Positions 15,395 through 28,752 of a DNA stretch of 64,000 nucleotides are shown piece by piece. Source of the stretch: Candidatus Heimdallarchaeum aukensis (lineage in GTDB: Archaea > Asgardarchaeota > Heimdallarchaeia > Heimdallarchaeales > Heimdallarchaeaceae); NCBI GenBank assembly GCA_021513695.1, contig CP084166.1:416001-480000 (forward strand), given 5' to 3'. The position numbers were made by a program, and so were the translations under genes. Under the pieces are notes generated by a model. The model was not told the DNA's origin. It saw only the letters and a list, made by a program, of their open reading frames with translations, and searched no databases. Position 1 is the stretch's first letter. Each line of letters starts with the position of its first letter.

Positions 15395-18067
15395 TTAATA
15401 TTTCTTTCCACAGATATCAATTTCTTCAAAAGTTTCCTTAACTTTATTTTTCTTTTGTTTTGTTCTGAAGATAATTTCAAATAAAACAATTGAAAAAATG
15501 AAAATCATCCAAACTATACTTTTACTGATAATTTCTTTTCTTCTAGTAATACCTATGTTTGAATTAGGATCTAATGGGTCAAAATCATTCATTACTTCTT
15601 CATAATCAGTATATGAATCTCCATCTGTATCAGGATCGTTGGGATCAGTATTATAAAATTTTACTTCTTCAAAATCGTCCAATCCATCAAAGTCACTATC
15701 TATGCGTAAAGGATTAGTATGGTAAATAAATAATTCTTCATAATCATCTAGTAAGTCACCATCTGTATCACGATTTAGGGGACTAGTATTGTAATTATTT
15801 ACTTCTTCTCCGTCTTTTAATCCATCATTATCAGAATCACTATCATTGGGGTCAGTATCGTACATGTAAATTTCAAGATTATCAGACAAACCATCCAAAT
15901 CTGAATCTTTTAATGTAGGATTTGTTCCATAAACAAATACTTCTACTCCATCATCTATTCCATCATTATCTGAATCATCATTTGTAGGATCTGTTCCATA
16001 AGCGTATATTTCATCACCATCTAATAATCCATCAAAGTCAGTATCATTATTCCTTGGATCAGTATTGTTTTCAAATTCGTGAATATTATATAATTCATCA
16101 TTATCAAAGTCAACATAGGCATCAATTGGATTAGCAACATCTAAACCATAGTAATATTCCCAGTAATTTGTCATTCCATCGCTGTCTAAATCTCCATCAG
16201 CATCGCTTGGATCATCAGGATCTAATCCTACACTAACTTCCCAGTAATCAGGCATTTTATCGTTATCACTATCTCTTACTAGTTTTATGATAAAAGCATC
16301 AATATATCCTTCCAAAGTGGAATTTAAAGGGCTTTTTAAAAGAAGATCATTACTCTCTGTACTCCCTACTATGTAGATAGAACCATCACTATCCACTGCT
16401 ATATCTCTACCTACATCTTCTTCTCTTCCACCAAAATATGTGCTAAAAACTAAATTTGTTCCACTTCTGTTTAACATAGAAACAAAAATATCGGAATAAT
16501 AAGTAGGATTTCTTTCTTCAATTGCATTTTTAATCGGAAAATCATTGCTCCATGTTCCACCTGTTAAATAGACGTTTTGATCATTATCTACCGTTATTGA
16601 CAAACAAGTATCATTTGATGAACCACCTAAAAATGTACTATAGATTATATTATCAGCTGTTGAACTTATTTTTGTTAAAAATATGTTAGAATATCCATTT
16701 AGTGTGTCATCAAAGGCATTTTTTGTTGGAAAGTCAGTACTATTTGTAACACCAGTGATATATACATAACCTTCACTATCAATAGTTATTCCTCTGGCAT
16801 AATCATTATACTTTCCCCCTAAATAAGTGCTAAAGATTAACCCATTTCCTGTAGAGTTAATATAGGATAAATAAACATCAAAAAAGCTTCCACCACCATA
16901 AGTAGAATTAAAAGCATTTACAGTCGGAAAATCATCACTTCTTGTAGATCCAGTAATGAAAATAGAACCATTAGAGAAAACTTTACCTTTAGCAAAGTAT
17001 TCAGCATCACTTCCCCCTATTATTGTGGTGAAAATAGGTTCAAGAGTTTCTCCATCAAGTTTAGTAACAAAAGCATCATAATCATCATCTGAAATATTTC
17101 CAAAAGCAAAGTTGTTGAATAAAGAAGTGCTCATAGTATCTCCAAAAATGTATATATTTCCATCATTTCCTATTTCTATCTTGCGTCCATAATCAAAAAT
17201 ATCCCCGCTTAAATAAGAACTAAAATCTACTAAATAAGGATCAATAATCAATTTTTTAGCTGTATCATATTGTTCAATATTAAAAATATAACAGTTGTCA
17301 TCAAGAGTAAAATAAGCGGGGATAATTTTTCCTTCTTAAAAAACTTTTAAGTTTCTATCATTAAAAATTCTATATTCTGTATTTCCGATTCTTGAGATTC
17401 CAACTATATTAGTTTCATCTTCTTGTTTTAAGTAAAACTTTGAATCTGATGATAGTTGAACCTTAATAACTGAAGGATCAGCGTTTGGTTCAACAATAAA
17501 TTCGTATTTCAGAAATGAACCTGTAAAATAGTATCTTAAAGATATTCCGGGGTATATATCTTCATATATTATTTCTTGATAACAGCTTATTTGAGTAATT
17601 GCTTTATCTTTGTAAAAAAAGTTAGAATAGTAATTTGCTAATGCTTTTGCCTGTGGTACAACGATATTTGAATCAGGAAAAGAGACATTAATTAAGAAAA
17701 ATTTAGTATTTTCTTCTTTATTCGGTTTAAGATTCTGAATAAAGTAGACCTTAGATTCTCCAAAGTAAACATTTGTTAAAGGAGATTGAGCATAATAAAA
17801 AACTGTCTTGTCAAATATATGCCCTTTATTTTTCATAAAAAAGTATTTAGAATTGTAATCACTGACATAGTTCTCTTCAATTTCGCCGGAAACACTGTAA
17901 AAATTAATTTTTGCTTTATTTTGCTGTTGTGAATATTTTATGCTGTAAGAGCCAACTAAAGTGTTATTTTTGACATAAAATCCAGATAAACTGCTCACAC
18001 TTACAAGAAAGATTAAAAACAAACAAACAATAAATGAAACATTTCCTTTGCTTTGATTTTCATTCAT
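15395..18067 (-). pseudogene. Surface protein gene (signal peptide, N-terminal domain, SBBP-type beta-propeller repeats, TSP3-like Ca-binding repeats, TM anchor) interrupted by one in-frame TAA at 17336-17338
   Basis: The ORFs 17336..18067 and 15395..17251 are in the same frame, as (17335-17251) is 84 nt, or 28 codons. I translated the gap by hand as ...NLKVF*EGKIIPAYFTLDDNCYIFNIEQYDTAKKLIIDPYLV, which is open apart from the single TAA. The downstream part has only a TTG pseudo-start and no signal peptide, while the upstream part carries the signal peptide (VSFIVCLFLIFLVSVSSLSG). SBBP-like repeats are present (YLGGKYNDYARGITIDSEGYVYITGVTNSTDFPTKNAF). So are TSP3-like repeats (DSDNDGIDDGVE, DTDGDLLDDYEE). 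Confidence 0.6.
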
Positions 18068-18350
18068 TTTTCTAAATATTTTAGGTTGAAAAATATTATA
18101 TAAATATTATCAAATGATTTTTGGATAGTTTTTTATTTAAAGTTTAAAATAAAGCTTGAATAGATTTTAGAATAAAAAGAAAAATTTTGCCAATTATATC
18201 TTTTTTGTAAGATTTAATCTAAAAAAGATAAATTCAAATTATAAGAAATAAGACAGATAATATTAGGCTAATTATCAGTTTTTCTATTAAATTCAAAATA
18301 GTGTTCTAGAAATCTAAAAAAATAGAATGAGGAAAACAGTAAAAAGCTAT

Positions 18351-18458
18351 AGTACTTCCGCAATAAGTTGACTGATTTCTATAGGTTAAAATTATAGGAG
18401 TTCATACTATCATTGGTGTGTTCTCAATTCATACTTTTTGAGATAATTCGGAAGTACT
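18351..18458. mobile_element. 108-bp MITE-like element, copy 1
   Basis: The element is bounded by perfect 10-bp terminal inverted repeats AGTACTTCCG...CGGAAGTACT, or 11 bp if the flanking T/A is included. It is intergenic and non-coding. Its reverse complement recurs at 28436..28543 with 2 mismatches by my reading. Flanking AAGCTA appears on both sides. Confidence 0.55.
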
Positions 18459-18504
18459 AAAGCTAATAACAATTTTTTTAAGTATAATTATTAAATAAAA
18501 CACA

Positions 18505-19326
18505 ATGGACAATTCTAATGATTCAATCAAGGAAATGAAACTTTTTTCAAATCAAACAAGAAGGGATTTGTTAAAACTTCTTGGAGAATCAGGAGGATTG
18601 TCTTTTACTAACATTAAAGAAGAATTGAGACTTACAGATGGAAGATTATATTTCCATCTAAAGAAATTAGAAGGCTATATTGAGAAAGATACACAAAATA
18701 ATTACAAATTAACTTTAGATGGTAAGAAAATCTATGATTCTTTGTTTTTTAGTCATATTAAAGAACAGAAAAAATTTGAAGAAGATGTTTCATCGAAATC
18801 TCTTAACAAAATCTTTCCAGAAGACATTGTTTATTATTTAATTGGAACAAAAACGAGAAGTATGATAGAATTAAATATGTTATTGTTAATTTTATGTTGG
18901 TTTTTTGCAGTTACAGACAGTTACTTTAGTTCTATTGAAACAATAGTTTTGGGGGGAGCTATAGTCAATTTTGTCATTAACCTTATCCATTGGTATTTTT
19001 ACTGTTTACTCATTTATATAATATTAAAAATTGCAAAGAAAGGAATAGACTTTGTAGAATTAACTATTGTTACAATAATAGGAATTGCCCCATATTTCCT
19101 CTATTTACTAATAAAAGGGATTTTGCAATTATTGAATATAGAAATAATTGGTTTGATAAATATTGTTCTGGTAATTTTATTTGTTATTTGTAAGATATGG
19201 TCTTCACTAATAATAGCACAAGGATTAACAGTCGTCTCAAAGATCCATCCATCACAATCTTTACTAGCTGTAATTTCATTAACAATTATTGATTATTTGT
19301 ATTTGTTTATTACTTTATCAATGTAA
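18505..19326 (+). CDS. Winged-helix (ArsR/MarR-like) DNA-binding domain fused to a multi-pass membrane domain
   Basis: 273 aa. The N-terminus (LFSNQTRRDLLKLLGESGGLSFTNIKEELRLTDGRLYFHLKKLEGYIEK) fits a wHTH pattern. The C-terminal half has about 5 hydrophobic helices. Confidence 0.5.
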   Translation: MDNSNDSIKEMKLFSNQTRRDLLKLLGESGGLSFTNIKEELRLTDGRLYFHLKKLEGYIEKDTQNNYKLTLDGKKIYDSLFFSHIKEQKKFEEDVSSKSLNKIFPEDIVYYLIGTKTRSMIELNMLLLILCWFFAVTDSYFSSIETIVLGGAIVNFVINLIHWYFYCLLIYIILKIAKKGIDFVELTIVTIIGIAPYFLYLLIKGILQLLNIEIIGLINIVLVILFVICKIWSSLIIAQGLTVVSKIHPSQSLLAVISLTIIDYLYLFITLSM

Positions 19327-19401
19327 TGATAGAACTTTAGAAAAATAAATAAGAAGAATAATAAAAAAGAAAGAGAAAAAATAAATAGAGAGCTGAAAAA
19401 C

Positions 19402-20070
19402 ATGGAAAAAAGAAATATACTGTCTCTGTTTCTACTAGTTGTAATAACTAGTTCTATAGTCGTCTCTGGGATGCTTACAATTAGAAATTATGAAGAAATA
19501 GTCGAAGATTTACATAACACTAATATTTTTCCTACCGAACCAATAGATAATGGAGATGACGATATAAAAACAGGAATATTAGAATTGTTTTATCTCGGCT
19601 CTGTTTCTGAAAATCAAGTTTTAAAAAGTATGACCAGTTATGGTCCCCCGAATGCGACAGAAACTTTGCAGAATGTTTGGATAAATGTTACAAAAATTGA
19701 ACTGGTAGGAAATGATTCAAGTTTAGTTAAGTTGTTTGAAGACCATGTCCAGCTTGATATAAAAAAGGCAGAAGAAGAAACAATATTCTTGTTTTCATTT
19801 AACATCACAGAAGGAACATACCCTGCAATTAAAATATTCTATGAAAACACTTTGATAGTAAAAACAACAGAAGGAACGGTTAAAACATATATAATTCAAG
19901 GATCGAACTTTCTAGTTATACCTTTCATGCAAGATAAGTACTCCACTAACCAATCAAATCTAGAAATATCGAAGAATGTAAAAAAATCTACCTACTTAGA
20001 TTTCAACGTGAATTTAATTTCATTTACTCAGTCAGCAGTAATAAATATACAAGCATTCTTAAGCCTTTAA
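19402..20070 (+). CDS. Hypothetical secreted or anchored protein (DUF4382-like beta-sandwich, tentative)
   Basis: 222 aa with an N-terminal TM/signal segment (ILSLFLLVVITSSIVVSGML). The remainder is beta-rich. The family guess is weak. Confidence 0.35.
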   Translation: MEKRNILSLFLLVVITSSIVVSGMLTIRNYEEIVEDLHNTNIFPTEPIDNGDDDIKTGILELFYLGSVSENQVLKSMTSYGPPNATETLQNVWINVTKIELVGNDSSLVKLFEDHVQLDIKKAEEETIFLFSFNITEGTYPAIKIFYENTLIVKTTEGTVKTYIIQGSNFLVIPFMQDKYSTNQSNLEISKNVKKSTYLDFNVNLISFTQSAVINIQAFLSL

Positions 20071-20241
20071 GTAAAAAAAATTATTTTGCAGAGTCTATTT
20101 ATTTTTAGATATTTACAGTTTTAATTCTCACAGATTCACTTCATTATTTTTAAGAGATTATATCATATAAATAATTAATAGAAAATTTATAGAAGATACT
20201 AAGATAGTTTTTTATATCTTCTTTAATTTGAATGTATAATA

Positions 20242-21156
20242 ATGAAAATTGGTTTTTCTATTCCAATATCAGAAAATAATAAAAATCAGTTACATTATGT
20301 TAAAAATCTTAACGATTTAGGAATAGAACAATTTTGGATAGGAGATAATCCTCCTGTAAACAACGCTTTTCTCACTATTGAACATATTTTAAGTAGAATA
20401 GAAAAAATTACTTTAGGAACAGGAATTACTTCTCCCTTTTATTATTCTAAACAGACTTTAGTAGGCACAGTAGAGTATTTCATAAAAAATTATGGTAAAA
20501 GATTCATTTTGGGGTTGGGTTTTGGAAAAAAGAAGTCTTTTTTTGACAGTAATGAGAGATTAGATTTTAGAAAATTTCAATCTTACACTCATGAATTAGT
20601 AGAAACAGTTAGACACAGATTACAGAAAAACAATTTGCAAGATTCTTTTTCTTATGCTATAGGAGGTTTAGGTAATAGTATATCAAAATTTGCTATTCTC
20701 AATGCTGACATATTCTTGGTGAATAGTGCTTCTAAATATGATCTCAAGCGAATAAATAAGATATTCAACAGTTTTGATGATAAAAAGAAAAGCCAAGTGT
20801 TTCTTTATTGTATGATGGAAATAAGAGAGAAGAAAGAAAACATTTCTCTCAAATTATGGAATATAGTTAAAGACATAGCTCGCAACTCATCTCTAAATAT
20901 ATTGGAAGAGCATAACTACTCTCAAAGTATGATAGAAAAAATAAAGCAATTACCTCCAGAATACATGTTTAAAATTCCTGAAGGAGAAGTAGTTCATATA
21001 GTCAATGATTTTGCTTTGGTTGGTAAAATCGATGAATTAGCGGAAAAGGTTTCTAATTTAATGAAAACTTCTAAAATAATCGATGGCTTAATTTTTGGGT
21101 GGACCAACGAAATTTATGACTACAAAAAAATAGCTGATTTTCTAGAATTGCTTTGA
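20242..21156 (+). CDS. Luciferase-like (LLM) / F420-dependent oxidoreductase family protein (tentative)
   Basis: 304 aa. The start MKIGFSIP and the stretch LGIEQFWIGDNP are typical of LLM TIM-barrel proteins. This is a weak by-eye assignment. Confidence 0.4.
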   Translation: MKIGFSIPISENNKNQLHYVKNLNDLGIEQFWIGDNPPVNNAFLTIEHILSRIEKITLGTGITSPFYYSKQTLVGTVEYFIKNYGKRFILGLGFGKKKSFFDSNERLDFRKFQSYTHELVETVRHRLQKNNLQDSFSYAIGGLGNSISKFAILNADIFLVNSASKYDLKRINKIFNSFDDKKKSQVFLYCMMEIREKKENISLKLWNIVKDIARNSSLNILEEHNYSQSMIEKIKQLPPEYMFKIPEGEVVHIVNDFALVGKIDELAEKVSNLMKTSKIIDGLIFGWTNEIYDYKKIADFLELL

Positions 21157-21211
21157 ATTACGCCAATTTATTTGAATATATTTAAATATTTAATTATTAA
21201 GCGAAAAATCT

Positions 21212-22174
21212 ATGAGCTCTTCAGATTTTGCTGTAGAAACCAATAGGTTAACAAAAGATTATGGATCATTAAGGGCAGTAAATGAAATTGATCTATCTAT
21301 TGAAAAATCAGAAATTTTTGGTTTGCTTGGTCCAAACGGTGCAGGAAAAACTACTACCATCAGGCTTCTTTCTGGAATGCTAACACCTACTTTTGGAAAA
21401 GCTAAAGTTTTAGGTATGGATTCTGTGGAAAAATCCCTCCAAATCAGAGAAAAAACAGGATTACTGACTGAAACCCCTTCGATTTATGACAGATTAACTG
21501 TTAGAGAAAACCTTACTTTCTTTGGTAGAATATATGGAGTTAAAACTGATTCCTTGAGAAAGAACATTGATAAATTGTTGGATATTTTTGATTTAGAGGA
21601 GAAAATAGATACAAAGGCAGGTACCTTATCAAAGGGTATGCGACAGAAAGTAGCAATAGCAAGAACACTTATTCATGATCCTGAACTCATATTTCTTGAT
21701 GAACCTACAGCTTCTCTTGCTCCTGAATCAGCTAAAGTTGTTAGAGATCTAATCCTTAATTTAGCAAAGGAGAGTAAAAAAACTTTCTTTATTGCAACAC
21801 ACAACCTCTATGAAGCTGAAATACTTTGTGATAGAGTAGCAATTATAAACAGAGGAAAAATTCTTGCAGTAGGAAAGCCTAAAGAACTCAAAGAAATGAT
21901 GAAGGGAGAAACATATACGATTATTAAATTCCAAGAATGGAACAAGGAAATAGAAAACTTTCTTGAAGCACATAATTACAAGATAAGTAATCTTGCCAAA
22001 GAAGAAAGAAAAATACACATAAAATTAAAGGACATTGAAAAAGAAACACCAGCTTTAATTAAAAAATTAATTGAGAATAATTACAACATTGTAGAAGTTT
22101 TCCACGAGAGACCTTCTTTAGAAAAGATCTATCTTGAACTAATAGAAAAAGAATCAAATGGAGGATTGAATTAG
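21212..22174 (+). CDS. ABC transporter ATP-binding protein (ABC-2 exporter type)
   Basis: 320 aa. It has Walker A GPNGAGKTTT, the signature LSKGMRQKVAIAR, Walker B IFLDEPTASLAP and the H-loop ATHNL. Its stop abuts the start of the permease gene at 22175. Confidence 0.9.
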   Translation: MSSSDFAVETNRLTKDYGSLRAVNEIDLSIEKSEIFGLLGPNGAGKTTTIRLLSGMLTPTFGKAKVLGMDSVEKSLQIREKTGLLTETPSIYDRLTVRENLTFFGRIYGVKTDSLRKNIDKLLDIFDLEEKIDTKAGTLSKGMRQKVAIARTLIHDPELIFLDEPTASLAPESAKVVRDLILNLAKESKKTFFIATHNLYEAEILCDRVAIINRGKILAVGKPKELKEMMKGETYTIIKFQEWNKEIENFLEAHNYKISNLAKEERKIHIKLKDIEKETPALIKKLIENNYNIVEVFHERPSLEKIYLELIEKESNGGLN

Positions 22175-22990
22175 ATGAGATGGGATAGAATTTGGGCTTT
22201 AGCTAAAAAAGATATTAAAGATTATACTAAATCTAAATATGTTTTCTTTACAATTATCTTCATGCCATTATTTCTTTCTCTTATAATGGCAATATCAGGT
22301 GTTTTACCACTAGTTAGTATTCCTGAAGATGAGGTCGATGAAGATGATTTTGCTTCTATCGATAATATTGTAGCAAATGTGGTAAAAGGCTGGAATGACT
22401 TTAATCCCAAACAGAAAATGCTAATTATTAGTGCTTATGGGATGCTATTCTTTGTTGCTCTCATACCAATAATTATACCGTCAATAATAGCTTCGGAAAC
22501 AATAGTAGGCGAAAAAGAAAGGAAAACAATGGAAGGATTAATTGCGTCTCCTCTCAGCGAAGGAGAGATAGTAGTAGGAAAAATAGTTTCTGCTTTTCTA
22601 CCCTCAATTATAGGAACAATTGTTGCTTCAATTGTTTATGCGGTAAGTGTTGATATTATGCTATATCGTGAGATAGGAAGACTTCTCTTTCCAGATCCTT
22701 TGATTATTTTATTTACATTCGTTATCAGCCCCATAACAACTATCCTTTGCGTAGAACTGATGATAATGATTTCAACAAAGATGTCAAGTGTAAGAGATGC
22801 CTATCAAATTGGTTCGCTTGTAGTTATGCCTGTGTTCTTCTTTGTTTTTCTTCAGATGGTGACCTTCTTCTTTTCAAGTTTATTATCAATACTAGCAGGA
22901 ACTACAATACTTATCCTATCTACAATTTTCTTCTACAAGCTTGCAGAGAATATTTTTGACAGAGAAAAAGCATTGGTAAAATTAGTTTGA
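22175..22990 (+). CDS. ABC-2 type transporter permease
   Basis: 271 aa with 6 predicted TM helices. It is translationally coupled to the ATPase gene (TAGATG junction). Confidence 0.7.
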   Translation: MRWDRIWALAKKDIKDYTKSKYVFFTIIFMPLFLSLIMAISGVLPLVSIPEDEVDEDDFASIDNIVANVVKGWNDFNPKQKMLIISAYGMLFFVALIPIIIPSIIASETIVGEKERKTMEGLIASPLSEGEIVVGKIVSAFLPSIIGTIVASIVYAVSVDIMLYREIGRLLFPDPLIILFTFVISPITTILCVELMIMISTKMSSVRDAYQIGSLVVMPVFFFVFLQMVTFFFSSLLSILAGTTILILSTIFFYKLAENIFDREKALVKLV

Positions 22991-23020
22991 TTTTCTTTTC
23001 TCTTTTTTATTTTTATTTTC

Positions 23021-23063
23021 AGAAAAATTTTTATTAAATATATAAGGATATAATTGAAGGGGT
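23021..23063 (+). promoter_or_regulatory. Conserved promoter/5' leader module of paralog 1
   Basis: An 18-nt box AGAAAAATTTTTATTAAA (BRE/TATA-like) is followed by ..GATATAATTGAAGGGGT and then the TTG start. The same box with the same 43-nt spacing to a TTG start recurs at 25260. Confidence 0.45.
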
Positions 23064-25118
23064 TTGAACAGAGCAAAAAAAATAGTACCTTTAGCTATAA
23101 TATTTGTTCAAATAATTCTTTTTACTAGCTTACAGTATAGTTCCGTCAATGCAGATGAGATTCAGTATAACGTAATTGGAATAAACATCAATTCCGATAG
23201 TGATTTTATTGATTTTGCAAGGACAGGAGCAGGAACTAAAGAAGATCCCTACATAATTTCAGGGTATCACTTTGAGTACTATGAAATTGGGATATTTATT
23301 TCACAAACAAGTAAATATGTCATAATAACTAACTGTTCTTTTTCTAACATCAAATATGAAGCAATAAGATTGTGGTCTGTCAAATCTGGAACAGTAAGAA
23401 TAGAAAACAATACGATTGTTAATGCAAAAGTGGGAATATTCCTATATGAAGCTCCAGATTGTACAATAATAAGTAATAAAATAATGAACTGTTCTGCTTT
23501 TGCAATTAAAGATGATTTTTCTAGAATAGGATCAAAAATTATGAACAATACACTTTATAACAACGAAGAAGGAATAACCATAAGTGAAACTAATTACACT
23601 CAAATACTGAATAATTACATAATTTACAGTAGAAATGTTGGCATTTATTTAATGGATACCACAAATGGAACAGAAATACATCATAACTTCTTCTTAAATG
23701 CTAACAAACCTGCTTTTACAACAGCTTGTAGTTATGGATATTATAATAATTGGACATCAAATTATTGGAGTGATTGGGATGGTTCAAGTCCATATAAAAT
23801 AGAGAGTAAATATGAACAAACTTTTGACACAAATCCTTTAAGTTTCGATGACTCTGATGGAGACAAAATAATCGATATTTTAGAACTTGTTATGGATATG
23901 AATCCAGAATCAACCGACAACGACTCTGATGAAATTTCAGATTATGATGAATTACTTATTTATGCAACAAACCCTAATACAATAGATACAGATGAAGATG
24001 GAATAACAGATTATGATGAAATATTTGTATATTTAACAAATCCGAATACACAAGATACAGATAAAGATGGAATAACAGATTATGATGAAGTATTTGTATA
24101 TCATACAGATCCGAATAAAAAAGACTCAGATGGTGATACCTTTTCAGATTATGAAGAAATATTACAGAAAACCAATCCTAGGAAAAGTTATAGTAATCCA
24201 ATTACAAAAAAATATTTGACAATCTTTCTTCCAATTTTTTCAGGTTTATTTGGTGTTGCATTTCTTTCAACTAGATATTACTCTAACTCAAAGAAAAACA
24301 AAATTAAGGTAATCTTTGACACATGGAATGAATTTTTCAATGAATGGGAAAAAATAATTGAACAGATAAATAAATCAGGAAATTCAGAAATAGAAGAAAT
24401 AATCTTTGAGGTAAATCAGTTAAAAGAAAAAAAAGTAGATGAGCTTGAATTTGTCAAAAAAATAGTAGCTCAATCAAAGAAACTACTTATAGAACATATG
24501 AAATTCAACGTTGAATTAAGTTTACAAAAATACAAAAAGCAAATAGAAATTTTTGTTAACCTACAGAGTAATTTGATTGATAAAGCTTTAATTACCCTTA
24601 ATCAAATAACAGAAAATACAATTCTTAATGCTGTAAAAGATTATTTGTGGATGAGATTCGTTTATTTGTATAGTACTACTAGCAAATCAGAAGCAATTAC
24701 CACTATTGAAGATGTGAGTGGAGATGCACTTTTTAACAAGTTCATTAAATTTTATAGATCTTTAGATTATGAGGAAAGACTGAAAAAAGAAATATCCAAC
24801 TTAGCAGAAGAAGTAAAATTTCAGATAAATCAAGCAAAAAAATATGAAATTGAGCTTATAGAAAGTTCAATAAACTCTATTATTGATTCTCTATTTGATA
24901 AATTTAATAAACTTGAGATCGATATAAATATTCTTCAAGAAAAAATCAAGGATATAAACATCGCTCAGATTAAACTAGATAATCCTTCCGAAACTTTTGT
25001 TAGAATCGAAAATATAGTAAAAGAAGAAGTGAACATACAAATGAAAGATAAAGAAGAGTCTATTCAGTCTAATCTTTTCTCTAATCAAGAAAAAGGGTTA
25101 AAGAATCCGCGTGAATAG
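23064..25118 (+). CDS. Type I membrane protein: right-handed beta-helix (NosD/PbH1-like) ectodomain, TSP3-like Ca-binding repeats, TM, about 290-aa cytoplasmic coiled-coil tail (paralog 1)
   Basis: 684 aa. Signal-like N-terminus. Parallel beta-helix repeats are present (IENNTIVNAKVGIFLY, IISNKIMNCSAFAI, LNNYIIYSRNVGIYL). TSP3-like repeats follow (DTDEDGITDYDE, DTDKDGITDYDE, DSDGDTFSDYEE). The TM segment is LTIFLPIFSGLFGVAFL. The tail is K/E-rich. Confidence 0.7.
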   Translation: MNRAKKIVPLAIIFVQIILFTSLQYSSVNADEIQYNVIGININSDSDFIDFARTGAGTKEDPYIISGYHFEYYEIGIFISQTSKYVIITNCSFSNIKYEAIRLWSVKSGTVRIENNTIVNAKVGIFLYEAPDCTIISNKIMNCSAFAIKDDFSRIGSKIMNNTLYNNEEGITISETNYTQILNNYIIYSRNVGIYLMDTTNGTEIHHNFFLNANKPAFTTACSYGYYNNWTSNYWSDWDGSSPYKIESKYEQTFDTNPLSFDDSDGDKIIDILELVMDMNPESTDNDSDEISDYDELLIYATNPNTIDTDEDGITDYDEIFVYLTNPNTQDTDKDGITDYDEVFVYHTDPNKKDSDGDTFSDYEEILQKTNPRKSYSNPITKKYLTIFLPIFSGLFGVAFLSTRYYSNSKKNKIKVIFDTWNEFFNEWEKIIEQINKSGNSEIEEIIFEVNQLKEKKVDELEFVKKIVAQSKKLLIEHMKFNVELSLQKYKKQIEIFVNLQSNLIDKALITLNQITENTILNAVKDYLWMRFVYLYSTTSKSEAITTIEDVSGDALFNKFIKFYRSLDYEERLKKEISNLAEEVKFQINQAKKYEIELIESSINSIIDSLFDKFNKLEIDINILQEKIKDINIAQIKLDNPSETFVRIENIVKEEVNIQMKDKEESIQSNLFSNQEKGLKNPRE

Positions 25119-25259
25119 CTTTATTTCTCTTTTATAGTTGATACTTTTATTACAATGAACTTACTCACAATCTCTCTCCAAAAATATGAAATATAATCTT
25201 TCTTCCTAATGAATCAAACATTATTTATAATCTAATTTCACTTTTCTTTTTTCAATTTT

Positions 25260-25302
25260 AGAAAAATTTTTATTAAAGGTACAAAGATATGATTGAAGGG
25301 GT
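25260..25302 (+). promoter_or_regulatory. Conserved promoter/5' leader module of paralog 2
   Basis: It has the same AGAAAAATTTTTATTAAA box, the same ..GATATGATTGAAGGGGT leader and a TTG start at the same spacing as at 23021. Confidence 0.45.
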
Positions 25303-27288
25303 TTGAAAATAAAAAAGTCAAAATCTAATCTGTTAGTTTTGTTTTTAATATTGTTCTTTACTAGTTCTACCTATTTTCATATAAAAGCAGATGATAATAC
25401 AAAATCAGGTTTTGCAATTCAAATCTCTTCTAACGATGAATTTTCTTTATTTTCAAAAGCAGGTAACGGAACTAAAGAAAATCCCTATGTTATCTCAGGA
25501 TATATCATTGAACACTTCGAAGCAGGTATTTTTATATCTCAAACAACCAAATTTTTCGTTATTACTAATTGTACTTTTCTTAATCTAAAATATGAAGCCA
25601 TACGAATAATGACAGTAGATGTTGGTAATGTTAGAATAGAAAATAATACGATTATTAATACAAAGTTTGGAATTTATATATATCAAGCTCCAAAAAGTAT
25701 TATTGTAAATAACAAAATCGTTAATTGCACTGTATCAGGAATAAGAGACGAATTTTCAGGAATAGGTTCTAAAATTGAAAACAACACTCTTTACAACAAT
25801 GAAGAAGCTATTACAATTTATTCAACAAATTATACTCAAATATTAAATAATTATATAATCAAAAGTCGGAAAGCTGGCATATTTCTATTGTGGAAACCAA
25901 ATGGAACAGAAATACATTATAACTTTATTCTAAACTCAGTAAAACCTTATATTGCAACTGCTCACAACGAAGGATTCAATAATAATTGGACATCAAATTA
26001 TTGGAATGACTGGAATGGAACAGGAGATTATCAAATAAGTAGCATTTATGAAACAACATTTGATAAAAATCCTTTGAGTTTTAATGACACTGATGGAGAT
26101 AAAATAATTGATATTTTGGAACTTGTAATGAATACAGATCCTTATGTGGTAGATAGCGACAATGACGGAATTGATGACTATAATGAATTGCTTAATTATG
26201 CAACAAACCCTAATGCCCAAGACAGTGATGGAGATGGAATATCTGATTATGACGAAATAATTGTATATACAACAAATCCCAATGCACAAGACACTGATGG
26301 AGATGGAATAACAGATTATGATGAAGTATTTGTTTATGGAACTGATGCAAAGAAACGAGATACTGATGGCGATACTTTTTCTGATTATGAAGAAATATTA
26401 ATGAAAACTAACCCTAAAAAAAGTTACAGTAATCCTATTATTAGAAGATATCTAACCATCTTAATTCCTACTTTTTCAGGAGTACTTGTTATTGCAGCTT
26501 TTTCAACTAGATACTATACCAACTCAAGGAGAAACAAAATTAAGGTGATTTTTGAAACATGGAATGAATTTTTCACTGAGTGGGAGAAAATAATTGAGCA
26601 GATAAACAATACAAAAAATTCAGAAGTTGAAGAAATAATATTTGAGGTAAAGGAACTTAAAAATAAGAAAATTGACGAACTTGAGCTTGTAAAGAAAATA
26701 ATCAGTCAAGCTAAAAAATTACTTATCAATCATATGAAGTTCAATGTTGAATTAAGCTTACAAAGATATAAAAAGCAAGCTGAAATTGTAATTAATCTAC
26801 AGAATAACTTAATTAGCCAAGCATTAACTGCTCTTAATCAAATAACAAAGAATACAATACTAAACGCTGTAAAAGATTACTTGTGGATGAGATTTGTTTA
26901 TCTATATAGCACAACAGAAAAATCTGAAGCCATAACTACTATTGAAGATATAAGTGGAGACACTCTTTTTAACAAGTTTGTCAAATTTTACAAATCATTA
27001 GATTATGAAGAGAGATTGAAAGAAGAAGTTGCTCATTTGGCAGAAGAAATCAAATATCAAATAAGAAAAGCCAAAGATTATGAAATTGATCTTTTAGAGA
27101 GTTCAATAAATTCAATTATAGACTCTTTACTTGATAAGTTTAACAAGCTTGAAGTTGATATTAATTTTCTTGAAGAAAAAATAAAAGACATTAGTGTTGA
27201 ACAGTCCAAGATCGATAATCCAAAAGATGCCTTCTTAAAAATAGAAAAAATAGTTAAAGAAGAAGTGAAAGAACAAAAAAGCAATTAA
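25303..27288 (+). CDS. Type I membrane protein: beta-helix ectodomain, TSP3-like repeats, TM, cytoplasmic coiled-coil tail (paralog 2)
   Basis: 661 aa and collinear with the 684-aa neighbour. Long identical stretches include DKIIDILELVM, NAVKDYLWMRFVYLYSTT and SINSIIDSL. Confidence 0.7.
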   Translation: MKIKKSKSNLLVLFLILFFTSSTYFHIKADDNTKSGFAIQISSNDEFSLFSKAGNGTKENPYVISGYIIEHFEAGIFISQTTKFFVITNCTFLNLKYEAIRIMTVDVGNVRIENNTIINTKFGIYIYQAPKSIIVNNKIVNCTVSGIRDEFSGIGSKIENNTLYNNEEAITIYSTNYTQILNNYIIKSRKAGIFLLWKPNGTEIHYNFILNSVKPYIATAHNEGFNNNWTSNYWNDWNGTGDYQISSIYETTFDKNPLSFNDTDGDKIIDILELVMNTDPYVVDSDNDGIDDYNELLNYATNPNAQDSDGDGISDYDEIIVYTTNPNAQDTDGDGITDYDEVFVYGTDAKKRDTDGDTFSDYEEILMKTNPKKSYSNPIIRRYLTILIPTFSGVLVIAAFSTRYYTNSRRNKIKVIFETWNEFFTEWEKIIEQINNTKNSEVEEIIFEVKELKNKKIDELELVKKIISQAKKLLINHMKFNVELSLQRYKKQAEIVINLQNNLISQALTALNQITKNTILNAVKDYLWMRFVYLYSTTEKSEAITTIEDISGDTLFNKFVKFYKSLDYEERLKEEVAHLAEEIKYQIRKAKDYEIDLLESSINSIIDSLLDKFNKLEVDINFLEEKIKDISVEQSKIDNPKDAFLKIEKIVKEEVKEQKSN

Positions 27289-27295
27289 AAAGTTT

Positions 27296-28411
27296 CTAAT
27301 GTATCCTTAGATTAGGTGGAATAAGGTTTAGAACTCCACAGGCTGGACATTCTATTACTCCATTTTCGTTCATGTCTTTTAGATCTAAGAGTTCTCCACA
27401 ATTCCCTGCACAATACATGGGAATTAATTCTGGTCCTTCCTTTACTCCTTCAATTGCACTATTAATCTTTGGAATAACTTCTTTGTAGAGCCTTTCGTGT
27501 ATTTGATCCACTTCATAACCGTAGACCCATATAGCTATATTTCCACTTTTTTCTTTTCCTGTGATTATAAGTTCAACTATAGAAATATCTTTTTTTCCGA
27601 TTTGGGAGACAAACATCAGGTTTCCAATGAAATTTTCACTTGTATCCATTACTATCTGTTCGTTCACTGTTTTATAAGAATCAAATAAGGTTTTTAAAAC
27701 TTTAAAAGCGACTTTTGGCTTTGCATGGAATTCTATTGATCTTCCTAATGAATCGAGCTTGTTGTTCTTTAATTCCATTAAAGCTTCATAATAACCATTT
27801 TCTATTCTTTCTTTAAGTATTAAAGCTCGTTCCTCTCTTTTTTTGTAAGCTTCATAGATTAGTTCTGTAAATTCAGCTTGTTTTTTCTTAACTATTGTAA
27901 ATTTCGTTCCTTCATGTATCTTTACAGGGGGAAAAGGCAAGCTACCTATTATTTGAGACTGAACAATATATGGTTCTCTTAAAGTTGAAGGAACAATAAA
28001 GCTTAACGAAGTACCGTAATCGATTATTTTTCCAATGTTTCCCTCTCTTACTATTGAACTCCAATCTCCTCCAGGAATTGTAACTGTATCTGGAACAGCC
28101 AAAAACACAACATCTGCTCTCGGGGGAGCAGAAGATATTAAAGCTGTTACTTCTTCTCCATCACCTATTTCTCCTGCAATTCTTTTGTCCAAGTATATTA
28201 AAGGATTTTTTCCTTTTTTTACTATCTCATTGATTTCAGCAAAAACTGAACTAGTCCTTCCAATTGTAGAAGAAAAGAGAAGAGCATATTTTTCATCATC
28301 TGCAAGTTCTAATTCAGTATCTTCTGGTAAAACTATACCTATACCGTTTCTAAAAACTAGTTTAACTTTACATGTAACCGTTTTCACATTCCTCTCTAAG
28401 AAAATCCTCAC
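27296..28411 (-). CDS. CDC48 N-domain-like (double-psi barrel plus beta-clam) protein with a C-terminal zinc ribbon and no ATPase domain (tentative)
   Basis: 371 aa with a GTG start. The segment IYLDKRIAGEIGDGEEVTALISSAPPRADVVFLAVP...VKIHEGTKFTIVK resembles the substrate/adaptor-binding N-domain of CDC48/VAT. The C-terminus has CAGNCGE...CPACG, i.e. two CxxC pairs. Confidence 0.35.
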   Translation of the reverse strand: MRIFLERNVKTVTCKVKLVFRNGIGIVLPEDTELELADDEKYALLFSSTIGRTSSVFAEINEIVKKGKNPLIYLDKRIAGEIGDGEEVTALISSAPPRADVVFLAVPDTVTIPGGDWSSIVREGNIGKIIDYGTSLSFIVPSTLREPYIVQSQIIGSLPFPPVKIHEGTKFTIVKKKQAEFTELIYEAYKKREERALILKERIENGYYEALMELKNNKLDSLGRSIEFHAKPKVAFKVLKTLFDSYKTVNEQIVMDTSENFIGNLMFVSQIGKKDISIVELIITGKEKSGNIAIWVYGYEVDQIHERLYKEVIPKINSAIEGVKEGPELIPMYCAGNCGELLDLKDMNENGVIECPACGVLNLIPPNLRIH

Positions 28412-28435
28412 ATTTATATTTTCCTATAAGAAAAT

Positions 28436-28543
28436 AGTACTTCCGAATTATCTCAAAAAGTATGAATTGAGAACACGCCAATGATAGTATGAACTCCTAT
28501 AATTTTAACCTATAGAAATCGGTCAACTTATTGCGGAAGTACT
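28436..28543. mobile_element. 108-bp MITE-like element, copy 2 (inverted relative to copy 1)
   Basis: The sequence AGTACTTCCGAATTATCTCAAAAAGTATGAATTGAGAACACGCC...GGTCAACTTATTGCGGAAGTACT is the reverse complement of 18351..18458 apart from 2 positions. AAGAAAA is present on both flanks. The element lies 24 nt upstream of the GTG start at 28411. Confidence 0.55.
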
Positions 28544-28752
28544 AAAGAAAAAGAAAAAATAAAATTCTAAAAAGGTAGTTGGGGAAGAAATTCCAGAAAA
28601 TTAGCTAAAGTCCCATATAAGCCAAATAAAGAACCTAGAATTGAATAAACAAGTAAAGCATATTTTTGAAACCCAGAAATATTTATGCCTAACAAGGCTT
28701 CAAATTGTTTTTTATAGAATTTAACAGGAATATTAACAACAAAAAGTTGTTT

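Follow-up and report, generated by a model that had tools for sequence, protein, structure and literature searches.

The question raised by this locus is why a 64,000-nucleotide stretch of the Candidatus Heimdallarchaeum aukensis genome (contig CP084166.1, positions 416,001 to 480,000; hereafter the window) should carry the same short sequence twice, in opposite orientations, on either side of a block of genes of about 10 kb. The initial annotation had taken the pair for a non-autonomous transposon, that is a miniature inverted-repeat transposable element (MITE), or for a mobile promoter or regulatory cassette, and had added that the copies might mediate inversion of the block between them. 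The evidence from further copies, from a partner insertion sequence (IS) and from empty sites in relatives all agrees with the MITE interpretation. It is very nearly certain that a 110-bp MITE inserted independently at the two positions, and that this MITE is an internal-deletion derivative of a 1,218-bp Heimdallarchaeum IS.

An inverted-repeat search of the window returned arms at 18347-18459 and 28435-28547, 113 nt long, 97% complementary and spaced 9,975 nt apart, the runner-up inverted pairs being coding repeats of 71% identity. Reading and alignment place the element proper at 18350-18459 on the forward strand and, as the reverse complement, at 28435-28544. The pair had originally been described as 108 bp long with 2 mismatches; the pairing and the mismatches stand, while the length becomes 110 bp when the terminal T and A are included. 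The copies differ at exactly two element positions, 24 and 68 (window coordinates 18373 and 18417), where copy 1 has T and copy 2 has C. The terminal inverted repeats, first given as 10-11 bp, are perfect over 11 bp (TAGTACTTCCG...CGGAAGTACTA). The 11-mer TAGTACTTCCG has 4 exact matches in the window against 0.42 expected, the expectation allowing up to 1 mismatch. On reading the window again both copies were found to be intergenic, with the end ...GATAATTCGGAAGTACTA directed toward the neighbouring gene start in each, as had been claimed. The parts of the two copies are as follows, with the two ends named after the left and right inverted repeats (IRL and IRR) of the IS described below.

18350..18459, + strand: MITE copy 1, 110 bp; left end of IRR type (TAGTACTTCCGCAATAAG), right end of IRL type (GATAATTCGGAAGTACTA)
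18350..18360, + strand: terminal inverted repeat TAGTACTTCCG, outer end of copy 1; exact match, partner at 18449-18459
18449..18459, - strand: terminal inverted repeat of copy 1, IRL side; exact match
28435..28544, - strand: MITE copy 2, 110 bp, in reverse-complement orientation; two positions unlike copy 1
28435..28445, + strand: terminal inverted repeat of copy 2, IRL side; exact match
28534..28544, - strand: terminal inverted repeat of copy 2, IRR side; exact match

Each copy lies between direct repeats of its own. These had been noticed as short flanking matches, AAGCTA at copy 1 and AAGAAAA at copy 2, and both proved to be target-site duplications.

18344..18349, no strand: target-site duplication AAGCTA, left of copy 1; a single AAGCTA is present at the empty sites of locus L028 and of strain PR6
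18460..18465, no strand: target-site duplication AAGCTA, right of copy 1; single at the empty sites
28428..28434, no strand: target-site duplication AAGAAAA (7 bp), left of copy 2; a 7-bp duplication is also seen at locus L013 and at the L043 IS copy
28545..28551, no strand: target-site duplication AAGAAAA, right of copy 2; read directly from the window

It had been suggested alternatively that the TA shared by the two ends might itself be the target duplication. This was rejected because the T and A are part of the element and the real duplication of 6 (or 7) bp lies outside them; in one distantly related IS the ends are C...G instead. Most Heimdallarchaeum-type elements have an exact 6-bp duplication and every duplication is different. 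The exceptions comprise three elements with 7 bp, one with 5 bp, one with 6 bp including a mismatch and one with none.

The sites of both copies could be examined without the element in relatives. The JGI contig L028 shares 97-99.7% identity with the window, and its copy 1 site reads ...ACAGTAAAAAGCTAATAACAATTT... with one AAGCTA and no element. The same site is also empty in the orthologous region (L044) of Ca. H. endolithica PR6, for which a complete genome is available, and the copy 2 site is empty there too, around L044 position 15014/15015. L044 aligns to 13.5-33.7 kb of the window at 73-91% identity, and its alignment blocks stop exactly at 18349/18459 and 28436/28544 while the PR6 coordinates run on uninterrupted; thus neither insertion exists at the orthologous position in PR6. 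Conservation of the sequence at orthologous positions, which would have favoured another kind of element, was therefore not found, and its presence or absence at these positions shows recent insertion. Three short-read contigs (SRR15988954), 100% identical to the window, each terminate within the element, as expected of a dispersed repeat in short-read assembly. Two proteins encoded in the window are identical to ones annotated for Ca. H. aukensis, in a genome of 3.08 Mb.

Further copies were sought by scanning for paired termini with a 70-100-nt gap between them, using one genome per species. This gave 27 loci, 18 in PR6 and 9 in the uncultured archaeon CAZHRF01, and a scan of metagenomes gave 9 additional loci; viral contigs scanned with the paired termini gave no match. 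The copies are dispersed and have target-site duplications of their own, and all those retrieved have perfect 11-bp terminal inverted repeats. The PR6 copies, each at a separate location, are all 110 bp long, with 7 of them identical and a mean pairwise difference of 2.2 nt in 110, and they differ from the window copies at 1-3 positions (about 98% alike).

The CAZHRF01 loci (L001, L002, L004-L006, L009, L014, L017 and L025) hold twelve MITEs of 106-110 bp which have about 17 nt at each end in common with the window element; their interiors are unrelated to it and form several subfamilies. Their duplications are mostly of 5 bp (7 of the 12 elements). One further sequence with similar 13-nt ends, a 112-bp perfect palindrome at L036:1950-2061 (Ga0105051; ends TAGTACTTCCGCAG...CTGCGGAAGTACTA), has palindromic flanks and lies at the end of a contig; it is more likely an assembly artefact than a true member, and was left out of the family.

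If the element is non-autonomous then an autonomous partner with the same termini might be expected, and a search for one found the 1,218-bp IS. Copies at L042 and L043 (1947-3164) have perfect termini identical to those of the MITE, duplications TAATAT and AATTTTA respectively, and each a single open reading frame (ORF) of 381 aa reaching to 18 nt from the end. Insertion sequences of 1,218 bp with the MITE ends are carried by PR6. Two variant copies were also found. That at L032:2947-4163 is 1,217 bp long, with an altered C-terminus and the duplication TTCTAT. The other, at L026:4231-5460 in PR6, is 1,230 bp long and 92% identical, with the same perfect termini, the duplication GAAAAT and a frameshifted DDE transposase. 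A protein search with the stitched L026 frames retrieved intact relatives annotated as transposases in H. endolithica and H. aukensis, and H. aukensis, the species of the window, has an annotated transposase belonging to the same 90% cluster. The window itself had been reported to contain no transposase, and a tblastn search of the whole of it with the transposase of the parent IS family found no homologue.

The MITE can be aligned along its whole length to the two ends of this IS. Its first 17 nt, in the orientation of copy 1, are identical to the IS end at the C-terminal side of the transposase (IRR). The final 92 nt give an ungapped alignment to the opposite end, with 70-72 of 92 positions equal, and this part of the IS comprises the IRL, a 54-nt leader and the first 13 transposase codons. 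BLASTN of copy 1 against the 1,218-bp IS similarly matched IS nucleotides 1-92 with 74% identity (E=1e-10) and the final 25 nt of the IS with 92%. It is from this alignment that the gene-facing end of both window copies is identified as the IRL. What remains of the coding sequence is the transposase start codon and 7 codons followed by a stop, with no capacity to encode a transposase. The element is thus short and non-coding, has terminal inverted repeats, target-site duplications and multiple copies, shares its termini with an IS, and occurs at sites that are filled in some genomes and empty in others, all of which are properties of a MITE.

The 381-aa transposase has a Pfam DDE_Tnp_1 match, and its best NCBIfam match is ISH3 (NF033541, E=5e-39), the next-best families scoring at most 38 bits. 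Its sequence includes the Y-(2)-R-(3)-E-(3)-R signature (DYCHRWGIETSYRLLK), and residues D128, D204 and E300 are invariant in the alignment. A metagenomic relative, with a transposase approximately 44-48% identical and an element of 1,223 bp, has the ends CAGTACTTCCGAA and a conserved leader. Compared with the pattern CRGT, the ends read TAGT in the Heimdallarchaeum elements and CAGT in this relative. The parent IS encodes a DDE transposase of the IS4 superfamily, but the placement within a family is not proven and we call it only 'ISH3-like' because it falls below the curated cut-off of the ISH3 model and has a 6-bp duplication.

The sites chosen by the elements have a pattern. Sequence logos of the flanks of 40 elements have A at outward positions 12-13 on both sides (32-34 of 40, against a background of 35%), and the target is therefore two-fold symmetric, a T-tract and an A-tract on the two sides of the 6 bp. 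Of the 40 elements, 13 are 42-48 nt from an ORF start, whereas even a broader interval of 30-60 nt takes in only 14% of intergenic positions. The motif AAA..TTTWWW is most frequent in Heimdallarchaeum DNA between -37 and -32 relative to the ATG, and its register equals that in the element flanks. The A-run of this motif beside the IRL could have meant one-sided targeting of the transcription factor B (TFB) recognition element (BRE), but this was rejected since the A-tract is equally strong on the other side; the half-site score is symmetric between the IRL and IRR sides (p=0.96). The bias toward the IRL is confined to the TATA-like part and to proximity to the ORF start. A target model trained without the window ranked the copy 2 site 13th of 63,767 window positions. 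The pattern may reflect recognition by the transposase, accessibility of promoter DNA, or the survival of harmless insertions.

Re-use of sites was assessed with three metagenome contigs orthologous to PR6 loci, at 95-99% identity, in which the MITE state is different. The element at L023:243-352 in PR6 and those at L041:656-765 and L034:4878-4987 in metagenomes occupy the same intergenic site in opposite orientations. An in-place flip of the MITE was considered for L023 and L041 and rejected, since the duplication is shifted by 1 nt (AAAGAA versus AAGAAA), and the same shift identifies these as independent insertions at a single hot spot among close relatives. At L026:2151-2260 in PR6 and L039:1429-1538 the flanks and the duplication TATATT are identical and the 110-bp elements have opposite orientations, differing at 3 positions once one of them is flipped; this would fit either a second insertion at the exact position or a flip in place. 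At L024:1551-1660 in PR6 and L035:1980-2087 the site, the duplication ATCTAA and the orientation are all equal and the flanks are 97.7% identical. The L035 element is a 108-bp variant whose IRL half is nearer to the IS than that of the standard MITE, and this suggests replacement or gene conversion. Such re-use is the most unusual feature seen, and points to hot spots or local turnover.

A bolder interpretation is that archaeal core promoters are the active target of the IS/MITE family, which would recognise either the promoter itself or DNA bent by bound TATA-binding protein (TBP) and TFB, and would insert upstream of the BRE at a fixed distance of about 10 bp. If true, this would explain why the same nucleotide positions are used repeatedly across lineages, and would be a prokaryotic counterpart of the promoter-targeted integration of eukaryotes in the archaeal group closest to them. 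We regard it as rather doubtful.

The way in which the MITE arrived at its two sites may be pictured as follows. Transposase made by full-length copies elsewhere in the genome would bind the shared 11-17-nt termini and would then mobilise the MITE in trans. Insertion would proceed through a staggered cut, presumably of 6 and occasionally 7 bp, repaired into the flanking duplication. The targets are AT-rich intergenic DNA with the T-tract and A-tract placed symmetrically, often 42-48 nt before a start codon, and an insertion just upstream of the host BRE/TATA leaves the downstream promoter intact.

Some points weigh against this account or parts of it. The H. aukensis genome was not among the scan hits, and the copies counted in that species are the 2 in the window. 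Movement of the MITE in trans is what we infer rather than what was directly observed. The transposase scores 134 bits against the ISH3 model with its curated cut-off of 225, and the 6-bp duplication in Heimdallarchaeum is unlike the 4-5 bp of ISH3. Finally, the same target model which ranked copy 2 so highly finds the copy 1 site unremarkable.

The alternatives raised by the locus can be weighed against these results. Two inverted repeats of 110 bp, 98% identical and 9,975 nt apart, make homologous recombination physically possible, and the copies might act jointly, either as the ends of a composite transposon carrying the 10-kb block or as recombination substrates inverting it. However, the duplications match within each copy (AAGCTA/AAGCTA and AAGAAAA/AAGAAAA), and none is common to the two outer ends. 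PR6, where neither site has a MITE, is colinear with the window over the block and both flanks, save that one internal gene is tandemly duplicated in the window. L028, without copy 1, is colinear at the left junction, and no recombinase gene adjoins the copies. Given this colinearity and the separate duplications, neither composite transposition nor a fixed inversion has any evidence in its favour, although inversion at low frequency may occur. Joint action is therefore very unlikely, the inversion idea of the initial annotation finds no support in the MITE-free orthologous regions, and the bracketing of the block is coincidental.

Both remaining alternatives concern the genes faced by the element, and for these the host sequences between each copy and its gene are needed.

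18470..18482, + strand: host BRE/TATA-like motif (CAA TTTTTTTAAG) between copy 1 and the ATG at 18505, outside the element; present at the empty sites too
28412..28422, - strand: host BRE/TATA-like motif (AAAATATAAAT, minus strand) between copy 2 and the probable GTG at 28387, outside the element; kept in MITE-free PR6

The register of the first motif agrees with the genome-wide AAA..TTTWWW peak at -37 to -32 from the ATG. The gene beside copy 2 had been started at the GTG at 28411, which is probably wrong, as the 93%-identical PR6 orthologue (363 aa) begins at the residue matching the GTG at 28387. The GTG at 28411 is the start of the longest ORF and comes immediately after the TATA-like motif (window 28385-28411). 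The spacing from element to start is then 45 nt at copy 1 and approximately 47 nt at copy 2, counted from the GTG at 28387. A scan for sigma-70 promoters and terminators found promoter matches at chance level and no terminator-like site, the model being uninformative for an archaeon.

A mobile promoter or regulatory cassette acting on the gene faced by the ...AATTCGGAAGTACTA end would agree with the excess of IRL ends within 30-60 nt of an ORF start (12-14 of 40 elements, against 5 for the IRR end) and of promoter-like motifs in register on the IRL side (13 of 28 elements, against 4 of 28 on the IRR side), and an insertion does displace any upstream regulator-binding sites by 116 bp. These motifs, however, sit in the host flank, vary among copies and exist at empty sites, while the final 11 nt beside the flank are the same in either orientation of the element. 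The sole promoter-like motif inherited from the IS, an A-run (AAAA) and GTTATG 19-32 nt from the IRL, is in register with the transposase ATG and is directed inward. The orientation bias is modest, and at two PR6 sites a related strain has the element oppositely oriented. With the host BRE/TATA between element and start, a promoter pointing out of the element at the gene is unsupported, and a regulatory role of this kind is unlikely. A structured RNA, either a riboswitch-like 5' leader or a small RNA gene before the two genes, might likewise account for the like end being turned toward the gene start in both copies, and the plus strand of copy 1 does fold into a closed four-way junction (-40.3 kcal/mol, z = -6.75 versus shuffles). 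The PR6 consensus, different at 3 positions, is without this junction and makes other internal pairs (z = -3.4). The subfamilies with shared termini have unrelated interiors and only the terminal-inverted-repeat stem as a common helix, and a conserved fold was rejected for this reason. The element is also present or absent between near-identical strains with target-site duplications, and since the host BRE/TATA lies between it and the start codon it would be upstream of the likely transcription start and outside any leader. Searches of Rfam, at gathering and permissive thresholds, and for tRNA and tmRNA gave no match. A non-coding or cis-regulatory RNA is thus hardly credible here, and insertion of a MITE remains the interpretation adopted.

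The block between the copies encodes a winged-helix/Yip1-like membrane protein, a DUF4382 protein, a luciferase-like protein, an ABC ATPase and permease, two tandem NosD/beta-helix/TSP3 proteins and the 363-aa protein of unknown function. The tandem genes with their upstream regions (window 23064-25118 and 25303-27288) repeat with a spacing of 2,236-2,239 nt; PR6 has one NosD-type gene here, so that H. aukensis carries a tandem duplication of approximately 2.2 kb. To the left of copy 1, a DUF7948/SBBP/TSP3 gene (window 15395-18067) which is one 1,018-aa ORF in L028 and PR6 is split in the window into ORFs of 618 and 243 aa. The window version lacks approximately 360-385 nt in a region of internal repeats, either because the repeat number varies and the frame is broken or because the assembly is wrong. 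L028 has about 1.4 kb (L028:2264-3694) that is extra relative to the window at ∼12.5 kb, including a 375-aa ORF without a Pfam match. In PR6 there are two copies of a gene for a 232-aa protein with faint rve_3 matches (L044:16176-16874 and L044:1258-1956), one of them inside an insertion of about 0.9 kb that has no counterpart in the window between 29535 and 29645. These copies probably represent a different IS family active in PR6.

The element is an ordinary kind of mobile element, here a newly described member that is demonstrably mobile. Its description provides a concrete, currently active transposon system for Heimdallarchaeum, with parent IS, MITE, ends, duplication length and target preference. 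The copies explain why short-read assemblies break at these points, and the insertions can serve as presence/absence markers in strain-level population studies. A tempting over-reading of the locus is also corrected, in that it need not be taken for a regulatory RNA, a promoter cassette or a 10-kb inversion switch. Only the re-use of sites and the clustering of insertions close upstream of core promoters could lead somewhere new. Abundant non-tandem repeats and transposase families have been reported in these genomes (Wu et al. 2022, PMC8813620), and the MITE/IS family accounts for part of those repeats. PMC8813620 uses none of the terms 'miniature', 'inverted repeat' and 'insertion sequence', and MITEs are not described there.

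How, then, does the element compare with known systems? The SM elements of Sulfolobus are archaeal MITEs. Others are known, for example the MITEHsal elements of Halobacterium salinarum (PMC7002104). The Heimdallarchaeum element resembles archaeal MITEs in being short and non-coding, with the termini of a resident IS, duplications and many copies, and in its presence/absence polymorphism between strains and within populations. It is unlike those named in having an Asgard host, in being shorter (110 bp) and in deriving from its parent IS by a clean deletion that leaves 17 + 92 nt.

The ISH3 family has been defined by a Y-(2)-R-(3)-E-(3)-R signature, CRGT ends, direct repeats of 4-5 bp and lengths of 1,225-1,500 bp (De Palmenaer et al. 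2008, PMC2266710). The parent IS is like ISH3 in its archaeal host, its single DDE transposase with this signature, its length of approximately 1.2 kb and its short duplication between T-rich and A-rich sequence. The CAGT ends of the metagenomic relative fit the ISH3 pattern, whereas Heimdallarchaeum elements have TAGT. Also unlike ISH3 are the duplication length, 6 bp in Heimdallarchaeum although mostly 5 bp (7/12) in the CAZHRF01 MITEs, the IS length of 1,218 bp, slightly below the range, and the score of 134 versus 225 bits.

Stowaway and other MITEs of the Tc1-mariner type (IS630-related) duplicate TA, and the arrangement TA-AGTACT...AGTACT-TA looks like such a duplication. The T and A are nevertheless in the terminal repeat, the 6-bp duplication is outside it, and the transposase is IS4/ISH3-like, not of the IS630/mariner type. 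Promoter-proximal integration is known in eukaryotes from Ty3, Tf1 and P elements, to which the present family is compared without being a member of any of them. Unlike theirs, the half-site preference here is two-fold symmetric and could be simple recognition of sequence or shape, or selection. The likeness is in the clustering of insertions upstream of core promoter elements, at a short and fixed distance, and in the sites being hit repeatedly.

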